Below, piece by piece: positions 12,452 to 25,967 of a stretch of DNA of 64,000 nucleotides. The stretch spans positions 320,001-384,000 of the forward strand of contig CM000434.1 of NCBI GenBank assembly GCA_000165345.1, written 5' to 3'. A model generated the notes under the pieces. That model saw only the letters and a program-made list of their open reading frames with translations. It did no database searches and was not told the DNA's origin. Both the position numbers and the translations under genes were made by a program. Position 1 is the stretch's first letter, and the number at the start of each line of letters is the position of its first letter.

Positions 12452-12951
12452 TTAAGATCTGGGTTTCTCCTTCTTTTCCTTGAATAATGCAAGTAGTGAT
12501 ACTCCTGAGACCTTCACAGCCTTGAAACGTACTCCTGGAATATCACCAACAGAGTGACCCTTACGACCGAAACCAGCGACAAGCACTTCATCATTCTCGT
12601 CAATGTAGTTCAAGCAACCATCACGTGGAACGAATGCTGTAATTTTCTTACCATTCTTGATAAGTTGTACACGAACACATTTACGAACAGCGGAGTTTGG
12701 TTGCTTTGCTTCTATACCAAAACGTTCAACAACGATTCCCTTAGCATGAGAAGCACCTCCAAATGGATTAGACTTGTATCTTGTACCTAAGTTTGCTCTC
12801 TTGTACTGCTTATCTGCCCATTTTTGAGTTCTACGACGTGTGCGAAGCTCACGTGCCGTATTAATACCCTTTGGTTTTCCTATTGAATGAAAGTTAAAGT
12901 ATTTCAGATACAAATCAATGGTAGTCTCAATATTCACTTACCTGAACCCAT
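12452..12951 (-). CDS. RPS23: 40S ribosomal protein S23 (uS12) in two exons: 12942..12951 and 12452..12879.
   Basis: Exon 2 encodes [17 protein letters not shown]...PNSAVRKC, the RPS23 signature. The tracker's 12937 start is GTG. The true start is ATGGGTTCAG at 12951..12942, followed by a GTAAGTG...AATAG intron (12880..12941, 62 nt), which gives MGSGKPKG. Confidence 0.85.
12880..12941 (-). other. Intron of RPS23 (GTAAGT...AG, 62 nt).
   Basis: Canonical donor and acceptor restore the conserved MG-S-GKPKG N-terminus in frame. Confidence 0.75.
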
Positions 12952-13917: not shown

Positions 13918-16900
13918 ATGGAGGAATTAAAGCATCTCAGAATACTCAATAAGGTTCAAGCAAGGATATTTGAAGAATGGAATACTAATGATAGAGATCT
14001 TGCTGAATATTTATGCTATATTGGCAAAGAAAGTAAATCACTCAAAGAGTTTAATGGGAAAGTAACAAGTATTAGTGGTGATAAAATATCTCACGAAGTT
14101 TTGGGCGATATTTATTCAATAATAAATGATACTGAATCTAAATTGAATAAAGTAAATAGTGATTCTTTAAAGCTTCAAAAATCGGACTCGAATAACGACA
14201 ATTTAAATTTTGCCATTCCAAATGAGAAAGCACCATTAAGCAAACATGCTCTGGAACTTATTAGGAAGGAGGATCCTCACTATGTAGATATTAACAGAAA
14301 AAACAAGGGCCAAAGCGAGACAATTTCCACAGGATTTGGAATGAAGGATACCAATTTAAAAAAAGGATTCGGTGCAATTTCAGGAATTAAACTGGTAGAT
14401 AGTTGCAATGTAAAATCCCAATACTCAGGTAATAAGCAAGAAAGGGTATCTAATGACTACGAAAAGTGGGAAATTATGCAGCTTCTTAATTCAGGAGTTA
14501 TTTCAAGGGATGAAATTCCTTATGACATTTGCGATACAACCGGAGATACTATCGATTTTCAAAATGTAGAAATATCCACTGAGATTGAGCTTAGAAATTA
14601 TGAGCCATTGTTTCTCAGAGGGCAATCAATTAAAAAGTTCAATTTTGACTCTTCAATACAAGTCGTAGTAAATCCAGAAGGGAGTTTGAATAAGGCAGCT
14701 GAGTTGGCATCTAACATTGCAAGAGAACGAAGAGAGATTCGAGATTTTCAGGAAAAGACCTTAATAGATAGTATTCCAAGAGATATGAACCGGCCTTGGG
14801 AAGACCCCAATCCAGAGGCTGGGGAGAGAACGATTGCAAGCGCGCTGCGAGGAATTGGGATGAATTCTCAAACCACACCGGAATGGAAACGCCAGTATTT
14901 AGGAAAGAGTCTGAGCTTTGGCAAAAAGAATGTTACTGCCTCTATATCAGAACAAAGAAAAAATTTACCCATTTATCCAATGAGAGACTCACTAGTCGAT
15001 GCAATAAGAAATAACCAGGTAATAGTTGTTATAGGAGAAACAGGTAGTGGTAAAACTACTCAGATTACCCAATATCTATATGAAGAAGGATTTTGCAAAG
15101 ATGGTGGAATAATTGGTTGCACTCAACCAAGAAGAGTTGCTGCAACTTCAATAGCTAGACGCGTTGCGCAGGAAATGGGATGTACATTGGGCTCTACTGT
15201 TGGATTTGCAATTCGATTTGAAGATATCACAACACCAGAGACAAAAATTAAATATATGACAGATGGAATGCTTCTTAGAGAAGCTTTATCGGATAACTGT
15301 TTATCACAATACAGCGTTATTATGCTTGATGAGGCTCATGAGAGAACAATCACAACAGACGTGTTGTTTGGACTGTTAAAGGTAAGTTAATAATTTATTT
15401 GCATTTAATAGTTACAAGATTCGCTGTTTCAATTTTACTGCTTTTTTTAATATTAAATACTAGCTTGATGATTGAGTTATCATTCAATTGTTGATGCATT
15501 GAAACACATACTGAATTTAGGTTTATCCAATCATTGACTGATGACTAATAGTTATTGAGAATATACTATTGGACAGATACCAATGATACAACGCTTGACT
15601 ATTAAATGCTGATATTTTCATGTATATTAACTATCTTTAGGAAACGTGCATTAAACGCCCCAAGTTCAGGTTAATTGTAACATCGGCTACTCTTGAAGCA
15701 GATAAATTTTCCGCGTATTTTATGAATTGTAATATTTTTACTATTCCTGGAAGAACTTTTCCAGTTGAAATATTGTACTCAAAAGAGCCTGTGGACGATT
15801 ATGTTGAGGCTACATTGGTTACTGTACTTCAGATTCATTTGCGCGAGCCTCCTGGAGATATTCTGGTGTTTCTAACTGGTCAAGAGGAGATCGATAATGC
15901 TTGCCAAACTCTACATGAAAGGATGAAAAGGCTGGAAAATATGAAGCCTCCGCCATTGATTATATTACCTGTTTACTCATCCCAGCCTAGCGAAATTCAA
16001 TCTCTAATTTTTGAAGATGCTCCTCCTGGATGTAGGAAATGCGTGATTGCAACAAACATTGCGGAGGCGTCCCTTACCATTGATGGGATTTTTTTTGTAG
16101 TTGACCCAGGGTTTTCAAAAATGATGGTTTTTAATTCAAAAACAGGAATGGACAGTCTCACAGTCACTCCAATTTCCCAAGCTAGCGCAAAACAGAGATC
16201 TGGTAGAGCTGGAAGAACTGGACCAGGAAAATGCTATCGGTTATACACTGAAGCTGCTTTCAATACAGAAATGCTTCCAACAACAGTTCCTGAGATACAA
16301 CGTACTAATCTTGCCAATACAGTATTACTTCTAAAGGCACTAGGGGTGAACGATTTACTTAATTTTGACTTTATGGATCCACCTCCCACTACGACACTTT
16401 TAATTGCTTTAGAAACTTTGTTTGAGCTTGGGGCACTTGATGAAGAAGGCTTTTTAACTAGATTAGGTAGAAAAATGGCAGAGCTACCTATGGAACCAAA
16501 GCTGAGTAAAATGGTTCTTTCTTCTGTTGATTTGGGTTGCTCCGACGAAATAATAACAATTACTTCTATGCTTTCTGTACAGAATGTTTTTTATAGGCCC
16601 AAGGATAAACAAGCTCAGGCAGACAGAAAGAAGTCAAAATTTTACCATCCGCAAGGGGATCATTTGACATATTTAAATGTGTATAACTCCTGGAAAAAGC
16701 AAAGATACTCAGTTCCTTGGTGTTATGAAAATTTTCTACAATCGCGAGCACTTAAAGGAGCGCAAGACGTTCGTAAGCAGTTAATTAATATATTTGACAA
16801 GTATAAGCTAGATATCATCTCAGCAGAAAATGATCACGACAAAATAAGGAAGGCAATTTGCGCTGGGTTTTTTAGTAACTCTTGTAAAAAAGATTCTCAA

Positions 16901-17194
16901 GAAGGTTACAGAAATTTGGTTGACAATCAACATGTTTACTTGCATCCATCTAGCACACTATTTAACAAATCTCCTGAATGGATACTCTACCACGAGCTTG
17001 TATTTACTTCAAAAGAATACATTAGAGACTGCTGCACTATTAAGCCTCATTGGCTTGTTGATTTTGCTCCTAATCTATTTCAATTTGCAGACCAGGATCA
17101 GCTGTCAAAAAGGAAAAAAAAGGAAAAGATTCAACCACTATATAACAAATATGAAGATCCAAACTCTTGGAGGTTATCAAAAAGAAGAAGATAA
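13918..17194 (+). CDS. DEAH-box pre-mRNA splicing ATP-dependent RNA helicase (Prp16/DHX38- or Prp2/DHX16-like). Exons 13918..15381 and 15641..17194.
   Basis: It carries [17 protein letters not shown], the LIVTSAT-type block and FMDPP, together with helicase-associated and OB-fold regions. The two ORFs are joined by a GTAAGT...TCTTTAG intron. The junction LLK|[17 protein letters not shown] matches the DHX spacing exactly. Confidence 0.85.
15382..15640 (+). other. Intron of the DEAH-box helicase gene (259 nt).
   Basis: Canonical donor and acceptor. Frame and conserved-motif spacing are restored across the junction. Confidence 0.75.
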
Positions 17195-19351: not shown

Positions 19352-19945
19352 TAAGTCATGTTTATCCTTATCGATTCATTAGGGGCTAAACTATAGCCGA
19401 TAATTAATGCTAAAAATTAGTTTACTTTTGAGCATACTTCTCTTTATAATACAAGCCACACCTACAAAAACAACCCACAGTATTTAACTAGAAAGTAACT
19501 AGATTTTTTAACCACACCTCCAAGGCGCCATAGACATGTTGGGCAGCGCATCAAGTACCGTCTAAAATTTAAATAACCTATTGTATTAATAATATATGAA
19601 AATAAGTATATCCATTTAACGCGGGAGGATATATAGGGTAAGCTATATATCTAATGGGGAGCAGATTATATATTAGATATTGTTAATACGATATAAAGGT
19701 AATACTTGAAATACATGTTAATATATAAAATATTTATATTTATATTTATGAATGAATTAATTGAATACTTTCCATATACAATAATAAAAATATATTATTA
19801 GTATATTTAGTACGAGGATAATAAAGCGCTATATTTTGTATCCCGCTTCCGCTCTTATATATTTTTTATTATATTGTAGTTTTCCACGTAAGAAGTTTTT
19901 AAAGATAAATTCAGAATAAGGTCGATATAAAGCTTGTTTAGTAGA

Positions 19946-21946
<2,001 letters not shown>

Positions 21947-22452
21947 ACTAACTGACCAATTTTCAAGATTTTATGGAAACCTGTCTAGGCTTATATTATT
22001 TAATGTTACCTATAATTATATTAAAAGCTTAATGTTATAATTAATCTAACAATTGAACACAGAAATGCTCTTTTTTAGAGTTAAGATCTGCATTTAGCAT
22101 GAGAAGTAATTAATTTGTAATTGGAATTAATGTAAGGATTAATTTAATTTTTTGATAAAATGAGTAATACTCAAAATTTATGTACATGGAGAAATTACAT
22201 CGTTTATTCTCATTTTTAGTCCATTTGCCTTTTACATTATATCGTTCTTAACTCTTAGTCCCAGCGTTTAATTTTACCTTTAAATTTCAATATGTTTAGA
22301 TTCAGAATTTTTTTTTAGTTTGAAATTGCCTTGACCAAATTATTTCAAGTGATTAAAGATACATAATAGCAGATAAATAAGTTATATAGTGAGAACTAAA
22401 TGGTGGGAGGTAGGTCTAAATGGTGCATTTGGCAGTTTAATATGATTTAATG

Positions 22453-23347
22453 TTAATTTTTTCGACCTCTGAAAGCTTTTTGCTGTTTTTCTCTTCTTAT
22501 TTCCTCTAGCTCTTCAAGGATTTCTTCTATTTCTTCCGCCTCCTGAACTGCTTCCTCGATCCTCCCCTCTTGAATAGCTTGTTTAATTCCTTCTTCATCG
22601 AGGTTTTCGAGAACAGGATTGGTTGCGAGTTCATATTCATACTCGCTTTGAAGTTCTTCTTCAGTCATCTTTCTCCTTAAGTTGGACTTTTTTACTACGT
22701 TTTTAGAAACAGGTGTACCAACTTGTTTATTTGGTACTTGCTTTCTGATATTTTTACCTTGTTGTTTTTCATCCTTTGATTGATTAATAATCAGATTTGC
22801 ATAGGGATCTACATGATCAGGATTATCTATATTAGCATTAGAATCTATTAGTTGGGATACAAAGCAATTAATGAGAAATTACTAAAGAATAATTTAGAAG
22901 AACTCACCTGAACCTGTCTTAATTATATTTTTTTTGTTTGATTTTGAATTTGAAAAACTTATTGTTAGGAAAATACGATGTAAAATGATACCTGAAAGTA
23001 AGTTGTGTGAATATATTATTAAATTTATCTACAATTAATGATTGGTTCTGGTTAATTTTTTTTTAATAGAAAGATTATCACTAATTTATGAATTAACCAA
23101 AATAAATCATTAAATAGTAGCTTTAATTATAATACTTACCAAAAATAAATAGTGCAAATATAATAAAAATAATGAAATATTTTTTAGAATTCGAAGTTTG
23201 TGATTTTGAACTGGATTTTGCAGGGGGAGATGCTTTAATATTTATAGGACTAAATGTTGGTAAATCATCCGTTTTTTTATGGTCAATTCTTTCCTTAATG
23301 AACGAACCAGATTTCAATGGCCTTATTAATGAAGAAGATCTTTGCAT
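22453..23347 (-). CDS. Predicted three-exon gene (23347..23140, 22991..22908, 22844..22453) encoding a ~227-aa single-TM protein with an acidic coiled C-terminus.
   Basis: Two tracker ORFs (23123..23347 and 22453..22668) join through GTAAGTA...TTTCAG (22982..23139) and GTGAGTT...AATAG (22845..22907) introns. Phases match (G|GT, then G|AT) and there is no stop across either junction. Confidence 0.35.
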
Positions 23348-23849
23348 TATTCCAATATTATAAAAGAATTATAATGATACCTTCATATTGTTTTCTACTT
23401 TTTTCTTGCTGTTATGAATTTGTCTAATGCATGCAAAATGTCTATTTTAGCGCCTATCATAGTGCAATTGCTACGATAACATTAATTAATTGGTTATATA
23501 TAACTATTTAAAAATTACTTTGCCAGAAATTTTATTTAAAAAAAATATATAACATTTTCTCTTTAATTTTCTTTCTTTAACAATGTCTGTAAAACAGATT
23601 TTCTAGCGTTTCGCCACTTGTTGGTCAGATATGATTATGTTTAAATACTAAAAAAACGTATTCGAAATTCCGAGGTATATTCTAAGACCAATGAGTAGTA
23701 AATATAGTTTGTTATATATAGCTATCATAAAATAATAAGAATTTTATATTTTATTAATAATTTTGGTAATATTTATTAAACAAAGCGCCGAAATAAAAAA
23801 TTAAATTTGTTTTGATGCGATAATATTTTAATGCAATGAACTTTTACAC

Positions 23850-25967
23850 ATGCAATCAATTATAAAAAATGCGTTTGATAAAGTATCAGTTATTAAGGAT
23901 GTAGTCGGGAACTCTATTGAAGAAGCAGTCAAAAGCAATTCAAGAGATGCTTCATATGTATTTAACTCGGGATCTTCAATTTCCACTAGTATTGTTAATT
24001 GGGCTGAAAAAAACAATGTTTCTGAAAGGGCCAACAATATCAAAGTAAGTGCGAGCATGTTTGTTGAAGATTTAGCGACTGGCTTAAAGGGTATGACCAA
24101 TAACATTACAATTCAGAGCAATTTAACCTTGGAAAAATCAAATCAACGTAAATTATTCCAGGAAAAAAGCGAATACGACTATTTTTCTGGAGAATTTGAC
24201 TCTATTGATAATATTGATAAGTTTTATGATGATAATAAATCTTCTATTAAATCTGTTTACAAACCGGAAAATACATTTAGAGAGATACACCAAACAGAAT
24301 ACGAGCTTCCAAGTGAAATAGAAAATCCTCAAATAATACCAATTTGTAACCCTAATAAAAGTTCTAATTCCGACAAAATATGTTTTACATCTGGAGATTT
24401 AGATATTGAATCTAATGGCTCGAGTTCAAATGAATTAATTGGTGAACCGATAAAAGATAAAAAACTTATTCAAGACTGCGATAAATCAGATAATGAATGT
24501 AACTTACTAGATCTTGATAAATCTAGCTATCAAAATTCAGAAGATGGGTTAATGTTTTCAATTAATGAGAGAAAAAATGATCATGATAAGAAAATCGTCT
24601 TGTCAAATAATCAATCAACAATACCCGAAAATTGTACTCAAATTTCTAATACTGATTGTGAATATTTTGAAAACACTAAAAACCAAAGACACGATAATCA
24701 TTTTAAAAATCGATCTAAGATATATAGCCCCAATTCATCAAGTATTGAGCCTCAAGAAACATCTCAAGAAGTGAATTTGGACGTAAAAAATCATCAAATA
24801 AGTAAATTTGAAGAAAACTCGAAAAATGATAATAACCCTCAACTTAATCCACTTACTTTTTTCCAAGAAATTTCCAAACTTAAAGAACAAAATAAATCCC
24901 TTGAAAATCAATTGGAACAAGTAAAAAATGAATCTGTTGAACTTAAAGAAAAGGTTAATATGAAAACAAAAATCATAAATTCGATTAATTCTAGACTTTC
25001 TAAATTGGAAATTGAAAAGAAATCTTTGAATAACTACATAACTGAACTTGAAACTTCAAAGGCAGAATATAAATTGAAAATTGATGAGTTGGAGCATCTC
25101 AATCTTAACTTAAAACTAAATGAAGATGTTAATAAGGAACAAACAAATACTATTAGATCTCTACAAGAGAAAATAGCCGAATTAGAAAATGCGCTGGCTA
25201 TAGGTGAAGCAAATAAGATTGAATCTCTAAAAACTTATCAGAATGAAATTTCAGAACTTAGATTAAAGTTATCTAATTCAAAGGAAAAAGAAAGCAGTAA
25301 TTACAAGCCTTATATTAATAGAATAAGTGCATTAGAACATCAGCTTAGTGAATTAAGAAGAAGGCACTCGAATGAACTACAAAGATTTGAAACAATAATA
25401 GATGACTTAAAAAAAAAATCATTCAAAGATAGGACTGAAAAAGAAGTATTGGAAAACAAACTAAAAGATGCAAATAAGCTTCATCAAGAAACTATCGAAA
25501 ATTATGATGTTCAAATTTCTCAGTACCAATTTGTTCTAGATCAAATTGAAAATAGTAAAGTATCAAATTCCCACGATACAAAGAAATTAATTGATTCAAA
25601 TAAAAGTTTTAAGCTTTCAATATGTAATGCCAATGAGTTAATAATTGAATGCAAACATTCTGATAGCGGAGAAATGAGTTTTAATCAAAATACATTGCCT
25701 TATTTAAACCACACGATTTTATCAAAGCCAAATGTTACAACGCAGCTTTCAATGTTAAATCCTCTACAAGAAGAAATTAAACAAGCTTTGCACGATAAGC
25801 AACTATTGGAGGATGAATATTTTATTGTTTACGAAAAAAACAAACAAATCGGTCAAGAACTGGAAGAAGAAAAACAACGAAATAGACTTCTCCAACAACA
25901 ATTGGAGGCTATGTTTAAATTGGTAAATGATTTAAGCATCAAACTTGATGAATCTAAAAAATCATAA
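23850..25967 (+). CDS. Long coiled-coil protein (705 aa), function unknown.
   Basis: The C-terminal half has heptad-like K/E/L-rich sequence. ATG verified. Confidence 0.55.
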   Translation: MQSIIKNAFDKVSVIKDVVGNSIEEAVKSNSRDASYVFNSGSSISTSIVNWAEKNNVSERANNIKVSASMFVEDLATGLKGMTNNITIQSNLTLEKSNQRKLFQEKSEYDYFSGEFDSIDNIDKFYDDNKSSIKSVYKPENTFREIHQTEYELPSEIENPQIIPICNPNKSSNSDKICFTSGDLDIESNGSSSNELIGEPIKDKKLIQDCDKSDNECNLLDLDKSSYQNSEDGLMFSINERKNDHDKKIVLSNNQSTIPENCTQISNTDCEYFENTKNQRHDNHFKNRSKIYSPNSSSIEPQETSQEVNLDVKNHQISKFEENSKNDNNPQLNPLTFFQEISKLKEQNKSLENQLEQVKNESVELKEKVNMKTKIINSINSRLSKLEIEKKSLNNYITELETSKAEYKLKIDELEHLNLNLKLNEDVNKEQTNTIRSLQEKIAELENALAIGEANKIESLKTYQNEISELRLKLSNSKEKESSNYKPYINRISALEHQLSELRRRHSNELQRFETIIDDLKKKSFKDRTEKEVLENKLKDANKLHQETIENYDVQISQYQFVLDQIENSKVSNSHDTKKLIDSNKSFKLSICNANELIIECKHSDSGEMSFNQNTLPYLNHTILSKPNVTTQLSMLNPLQEEIKQALHDKQLLEDEYFIVYEKNKQIGQELEEEKQRNRLLQQQLEAMFKLVNDLSIKLDESKKS

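Follow-up and report, generated by a model that had tools for sequence, protein, structure and literature searches.

A three-exon gene for a predicted Cryptosporidium-specific membrane protein on chromosome 6 of Cryptosporidium parvum

Two short ORFs on the minus strand of chromosome 6 of Cryptosporidium parvum, located between the E2F/DP gene cgd6_1430 and cgd6_1440, belong to the first and last exons of a single spliced gene of three exons. We hold with high confidence, a judgement that covers gene structure and coding status, that this locus (22453..23347, minus strand) is a real protein-coding gene. Positions refer to the window, which is the whole 64,000-nt stretch of DNA analysed; it is AT-rich (25-41% G+C), and the proteins encoded beside the three-exon gene are identical to deposited C. 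parvum chromosome 6 proteins. The gene model is already known from current C. parvum annotations, and what we report is its correct rediscovery. A spliced model read from the sequence alone, which the original annotation of C. parvum and C. hominis had missed, was later added by evidence-based re-annotation, and the result matters mainly as validation. The features of the locus are as follows.

19946..21946, plus strand: E2F/DP gene cgd6_1430, 666 aa, Pfam PF02319 at E = 1.4e-16
22453..22668, minus strand: 3' ORF, 71 aa
23123..23347, minus strand: 5' ORF, 74 aa
23347..23140, minus strand: exon 1, 208 nt, ATG at 23347; residues 1-69 and the first base of codon 70; encodes the N-terminal domain, basic and rich in Ser and Lys, and the 13 residues that open the hydrophobic helix (YFIIFIIFALFIF)
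23139..22992, minus strand: intron 1, phase 1, 148 nt, 19% G+C; ttg/GTAAGTA...ACTTACTTTCAG/gt, acceptor end TTTCAG
22991..22908, minus strand: exon 2, 84 nt; residues 70 (part) to 98 (part), GIILHRIFLTISFSNSKSNKKNIIKTGS; encodes the second half of the predicted transmembrane helix and a basic flank
22907..22845, minus strand: intron 2, phase 1, 63 nt, 27% G+C; cag/GTGAGTT...CCCAACTAATAG/at, ending AATAG
22844..22453, minus strand: exon 3, 392 nt including the stop codon TAA at 22455..22453; encodes a poorly conserved basic linker, then a conserved acidic helical C-terminal domain
23348..23849, no strand assigned: intergenic region, 502 nt, common to the divergent cgd6_1440
23850..25967, plus strand: coiled-coil gene cgd6_1440, 705 aa, oriented divergently from the three-exon gene

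The spliced model and its place in existing annotation

Rebuilt from the sequence, the spliced CDS has 684 nt and encodes 227 aa with zero internal stops, and the ATG of exon 1 is preceded upstream by an in-frame stop. An earlier sequence-only reading of this DNA had proposed that the two minus-strand ORFs, which are indeed present at its coordinates and encode 74 and 71 aa, are joined by two canonical introns (GTAAGTA...TTTCAG and GTGAGTT...AATAG), and both introns could be rebuilt where it had placed them. Its length for intron 2, 63 nt, agrees with our model. The 158 nt that it gave for intron 1 is wrong, the actual length being 148 nt, and is an arithmetic slip, since its own coordinates (23139 and 22992) give the latter value. 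It was right in calling the phases compatible, as both introns are phase 1 and the 684-nt CDS stays open, and in describing the 84-nt middle exon as open in the required frame only: exon 2 is open in frame 2 and contains stops in frames 0 and 1. The product, which it had expected to be of about 227 aa, is of exactly that length and equals the deposited C. parvum proteins residue for residue.

By exact-sequence look-up, the 227-aa product is 100% identical to CPATCC_0012920/QOY41022.1, CPHLJ_6g1435, WKS78252.1, WRK32741.1 and UniProt A0A7S7RF87; the last bears the name 'Transmembrane protein', and the databases give no function. CPATCC_0012920 is the same gene, alike in all 227 residues and in its 895-nt annotated span, and differs in nothing. 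In assembly GCA_031892065.1 the gene spans 895 nt for 227 aa, that is, 684 nt of CDS and 211 nt of introns. C. hominis and C. tyzzeri have near-identical proteins, which fall in the same 90%-identity cluster. According to its authors, the introns of the CPATCC (CpIA) annotation are 100% RNA-seq-supported, a claim made about the whole annotation (PMC8744675), and it is on this annotation-wide claim that transcript support for the three-exon gene rests. Full-text literature searches for cgd6_1435 and CPATCC_0012920 returned no paper.

The gene had also been described as cryptic. Its three-exon structure stands, while the adjective holds only relative to the oldest annotations, in which the locus appears as two separate hypothetical proteins: XP_668163.1 (C. 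hominis TU502, 74 aa) for the 5' ORF, and XP_668164.1 (C. hominis TU502) together with CAD98688.1 (C. parvum chromosome 6), of 71 aa, for the 3' ORF. These separate deposits would fit a reading in which each ORF is a small gene of its own, or noise, and the splice path between the two is coincidental. However, XP_668163.1 is exon 1 read through into intron 1, and the 71-aa protein begins at an internal Met and covers the 3' part of exon 3. Exon 2, both introns and the 5' part of exon 3 are absent from the split annotations, which have been superseded by newer ones that merge both ORFs. Moreover, the sequence upstream of the ATG of the 71-aa ORF is open and conserved as protein.

Independence of the two ORFs also draws on the ease with which splice paths arise by chance. 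We counted 277 frame-compatible GT..AG paths within the 895 nt of the gene, and a path of this kind is therefore weak evidence when taken alone. The strength of the splice sites argues the other way. Exactly two GT[AG]AGT hexamers occur on the sense strand of the gene, where base composition would lead one to expect 0.37, and these two are the donors of both introns; when the middle 482 nt were shuffled 1000 times, no shuffle produced a GTRAGT..YAG path linking the two ORFs. The exon-intron arrangement of the three-exon gene is more than chance.

Conservation of exons and introns across Cryptosporidium

The gene has orthologues in C. meleagridis, chipmunk genotype I, C. ubiquitum, C. canis, C. 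felis, C. ryanae, C. xiaoi and C. muris, and the genomic DNA of these eight loci together with that of C. parvum made up a comparative set of nine genomes. The protein is 49-96% identical to those of the eight other species, and both phase-1 GT-AG introns lie at homologous codons in nine of nine genomes, C. muris included. Exon 1 measures 208 nt in eight of the nine species, C. muris having 214 nt; exon 2 measures 84 nt in seven of them, C. felis and C. muris having 81 nt; among the closer species, both exons align gap-free. Intron lengths vary by non-multiples of three (125-148 nt across the nine species for intron 1, and 57-93 nt across all species for intron 2, the least conserved segment of the gene), whereas exons 1 and 2 tolerate no such indels. 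Retention of intron 1 would bring in an in-frame stop within 5-15 codons in each of the eight intestinal-clade species tested, and an intron-free ORF was found in none of the eight species tested.

Identity is higher in exons than in introns: in the comparison with C. ubiquitum, it amounts to 0.86 for exon 1, 0.71 for intron 1, 0.85 for exon 2, 0.64 for intron 2 and 0.79 for exon 3. Variable sites cluster in the third position of codons; the start codon, the stop codon and the splice sites are conserved across species. The dN/dS ratio is 0.08-0.16 overall, 0-0.22 in exon 1 and 0.06-0.24 in exon 2, the last range coming from the three closest species. Judged from these alignments, all three exons are under purifying selection. 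The conserved length, frame and sequence of exon 2 across nine species, the presence of non-triplet indels in the introns and not in exons 1 and 2, and a dN/dS well below 1 in each exon all speak against two independent ORFs, a reading that we consider very improbable.

The introns of the three-exon gene are of the U2 type, both in their GT-AG sites (GTAAGT...CAG and GTGAGT...TAG, with orthologue donors that read GTAAGT, GTATGT, GTGAGT, GTACGT or GTAAGC) and in their non-coding mode of evolution, which is visible for the two of them as non-triplet indels, in-frame stops and conservation below that of the exons. Published means for C. parvum introns are 84-99 nt in length and 22% in G+C (PMC4637869, Isaza et al. 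2015). Both introns resemble ordinary Cryptosporidium introns in their GT-AG ends, their GTRAGT donors, their shortness and their low G+C content, but intron 1 differs in being longer than average and in containing a stable hairpin.

A second alternative concerns exon 2, which could be a cassette exon or go unused, in which case its skipping would yield a 199-aa protein with a truncated hydrophobic segment. Skipping would be neutral for the frame, given two phase-1 introns on either side of an 84-nt exon, and the residues of exon 2 are indeed lacking from deposited proteins of C. canis (P0015, P0016), C. felis (P0019) and, in one case, C. meleagridis (P0014). Yet exon 2 is well conserved in the DNA of C. 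canis and C. felis, where GT-AG sites flank it at the same positions, and this exon is under purifying selection. Its inclusion restores the conserved G[VI]ILHRIFLT motif, which makes up half of the predicted transmembrane helix; without it the hydrophobic run is of some 14 residues, too short to span a membrane. We therefore give a cassette or unused exon 2 a slim chance, and a minor exon 2-skipped isoform may exist beside the three-exon transcript.

Keeping to the three-exon model, we note that the deposited models in C. canis (L004:2501-3363), C. felis (L003:2501-3396) and one C. meleagridis assembly omit exon 2 or use other junctions. As the DNA of C. canis and C. felis keeps this exon (84 or 81 nt) with proper sites, these models look like annotation errors. 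Errors are probably what they are, likely without transcript evidence behind them, and the models should be corrected to include exon 2.

Finally, the locus could be a decaying pseudogene, or a non-coding transcript with relic ORFs. The protein belongs to no Pfam or PDB family and lacks homologues beyond the genus, as would be expected of such a relic. Similarly, in the supplements of PMC4637869, PMC6536522 and PMC6877471, which include two expression studies, cgd6_1430 and cgd6_1440 are present and there is no entry under the guessed identifier cgd6_1435, although the tables' own identifier for the gene may differ. Against decay, the ORF is intact and has the same structure in nine species of the intestinal and gastric clades, with the low dN/dS (0.08-0.16) and the conserved start, stop and splice sites described above. 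We attach virtually no credence to the pseudogene.

The position of the three-exon gene is conserved as well. At seven intestinal-species loci it is flanked by a gene of ~690-706 aa on one side and a PF02319 (E2F) gene on the other, in the same order as in the window; at the C. muris locus, only the upstream neighbour is visible. The C. muris gene, CMU_008510 (XP_002140709.1, 237 aa), is the most distant orthologue found. It shares with the intestinal species the N-terminal MQRSSS, the KKTD motif, the FG.ILHRIF helix, the C-terminal KGFRG motif and the same two phase-1 intron positions, with exons of 214, 81 and 419 nt; it differs in having no recognisable counterpart of the acidic helical C-terminal domain seen in the intestinal species. 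An orthologue profile matches CMU_008510 at positions 1-165 only (E = 1.6e-7). By sequence similarity, synteny, and shared intron positions and phases, the gene belongs to the CPATCC_0012920/CMU_008510 orthogroup.

The same three coding blocks, in matching frames, are found on a 1.5-kb metagenome contig of the xiaoi/ryanae clade (ENA ERZ11466776, 1-1520), whose exon 3 is 68% identical to that of C. xiaoi and 62% to that of C. ryanae. On this contig, only the ORF of exon 3 (110 aa, P0020) had been called as a gene.

An orphan protein with one hydrophobic helix

The 227-aa product is a single-pass membrane protein specific to the genus, its membrane placement being predicted. A HMMER profile built from 12 orthologues gave only four matches among 1.84 billion representative proteins, none of them outside the Cryptosporidium type: three Cryptosporidium proteins and one metagenome ORF of Cryptosporidium type. 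The family is therefore genus-restricted and uncharacterised. Pfam searches with the whole protein, with both of its halves and with the C. muris orthologue gave sub-threshold matches only; SNARE (PF05739), DUF6574, Zip, SARAF and MPS-4, all matching on the hydrophobic segment, scored 11-19 bits against gathering cut-offs of 25-35 and were rejected. Against PDB sequences, the profile yielded one borderline match, to the TPC1 S6/C-terminal region in 6c96 (E = 0.0015, 21 bits), that spans the transmembrane helix and a short KS.L..KM..EE.Q..YE stretch. We judged this match compositional and rejected an identity as a two-pore channel C-terminus, for which Foldseek gave no support: a search of the predicted structure against the PDB returned nothing at E <= 0.001.

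The architecture foreseen by the sequence-only reading, with a basic N-terminus, one hydrophobic helix and an acidic C-terminus, is borne out by the composition of the protein and its predicted structure. Residues 1-56 carry a net charge of +8, have a pI of 10.5, are rich in Ser, Thr and Lys and contain the invariant motifs M.RSSS.I.PL.S.SF and H.K.DDL. The sole hydrophobic segment, of about 26 residues, follows at ~57-82, and AlphaFold2 predicts a helix at 54-85 with a pLDDT of up to 88. Intron 1 splits this helix at Gly70, and so only the spliced message encodes the whole putative membrane anchor. Residues 86-148 form a poorly conserved basic linker that is predicted to be disordered. Residues 149-227 are again conserved in intestinal species, with the pattern KKSNLRRKM[T/S]EEELQSEYEYEL..NP.LE.LDE..IK.AI..G.I....EAEEIEEI...FRGR, and within them the stretch 158-216 has a net charge of -19 and is predicted to be helical, with AlphaFold2 helices at 159-172, 181-189 and 192-221 and a short heptad pattern at 193-213. 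The AlphaFold2 model obtained with the orthologue alignment consists of helices and disorder and is of low confidence (pLDDT 60, pTM 0.20). The 227-aa sequence has no Cys, and no N-glycosylation sequon is conserved among the aligned orthologues.

Inspection by eye led to the rejection of several short motifs. In a FFAT-like motif (EYEYELA), an invariant Tyr puts Glu where a small residue is needed; a 14-3-3 motif lacks Pro at +2; the C-terminal FRGRKN does not fit a di-lysine ER signal; and UIM and LIR motifs do not fit either.

How such a protein might work can be sketched, although the functional details are tentative and our confidence in them is far below that in the gene structure. Transcription would start in the 502-nt region common to cgd6_1440, as the position of the gene suggests, and removal of the two phase-1 GT-AG spliceosomal introns from the pre-mRNA joins the three exons into the 684-nt CDS. 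The hydrophobic segment would act as a signal anchor, probably such that the very basic N-terminus faces the cytosol. The charges flanking the helix are +4 and +3 to +4 and make the topology ambiguous; since they are balanced, this N-in orientation is at best mildly favoured, despite the strongly basic N-terminus.

The conserved acidic helices might, more speculatively, form a protein-interaction module. A conserved R-R/K-K-M/L-[S/T]-E-E-E motif matches basophilic and acidophilic kinase consensus sites, and one could imagine that it regulates the acidic module, only if the C-terminus is cytosolic. With a single span, the N-in orientation would make the kinase-type motif lumenal, which argues against a cytosolic phosphosite. 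As it stands, the protein joins the many membrane proteins that are confined to Cryptosporidium and uncharacterised, and nothing points to a specific or unusual function.

The intron 1 hairpin, the upstream region and other genes in the window

Intron 1 (22992..23139, minus strand) contains an inverted repeat that folds as a long hairpin, with arms UUAAUGAUU..UUUUGGUUAAUU and AAUUAACCAGAACC..AAUCAUUAA. The fold has a minimum free energy of -27.5 kcal/mol, where shuffled sequences give -13.9 +/- 2.7 (z = -5.05). Unusually stable folding is also seen in the orthologous introns of C. meleagridis (z = -3.3), C. ubiquitum (-3.8) and C. canis (-2.2), and a four-species consensus keeps 27 pairs, two of them with compensatory changes. 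The introns of chipmunk genotype I, C. felis, C. ryanae, C. xiaoi and C. muris show no such stability, RNAalifold gave no consensus structure for the nine intron 1 sequences, and Rfam returned no match at E <= 1 for 21900..23900. The hairpin, which is stable in the C. parvum clade, could serve as a cis-element, for example by bringing together the splice sites of a longer-than-average intron. The combined proposal, in which the orphan protein would belong to a Cryptosporidium-specific membrane structure, with its acidic domain as a regulated interaction module, and the intron 1 hairpin would at the same time be a functional cis-element, is in our estimate unlikely.

The 502-nt intergenic region (23348..23849) is presumably the promoter region. 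It contains the palindrome TGCATGCA at 23428..23435, 81-88 nt upstream of the start codon, which does not vary among the five aligned species and has a partly conserved GGCGCTA close by on its upstream side. The palindrome resembles an ApiAP2-type motif and is a candidate for one. The window has three copies of TGCATGCA against 0.85 expected, a number reached by 8 of 100 shuffles.

The donor and acceptor style of the two introns had been likened to that of four other introns in the window, and the likeness is good for the two that we compared, in the DEAH-box splicing helicase gene and the ribosomal protein S23 gene. The former (cgd6_1410, 13918..17194, plus strand) has a single 259-nt intron at 15382..15640 (aag/GTAAGTT...CTTTAG/ga), which is the only GT-AG solution giving the annotated 1005-aa product. 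The latter (cgd6_1390, 12880..12951, minus strand) has a first exon of only 10 nt (ATGGGTTCAG), followed by a phase-1 intron of 62 nt at 12941..12880 (cag/GTAAGTG...CAATAG), and its product begins with MGSG. In the neighbouring E2F/DP gene, the mechanical ORF (19934..21946, plus strand) begins at a TTG and has 670 aa, the annotated protein of 666 aa starting from the ATG at 19946, and a long Asn run and Ser/Asn-rich low-complexity regions lie ahead of its winged-helix domain.
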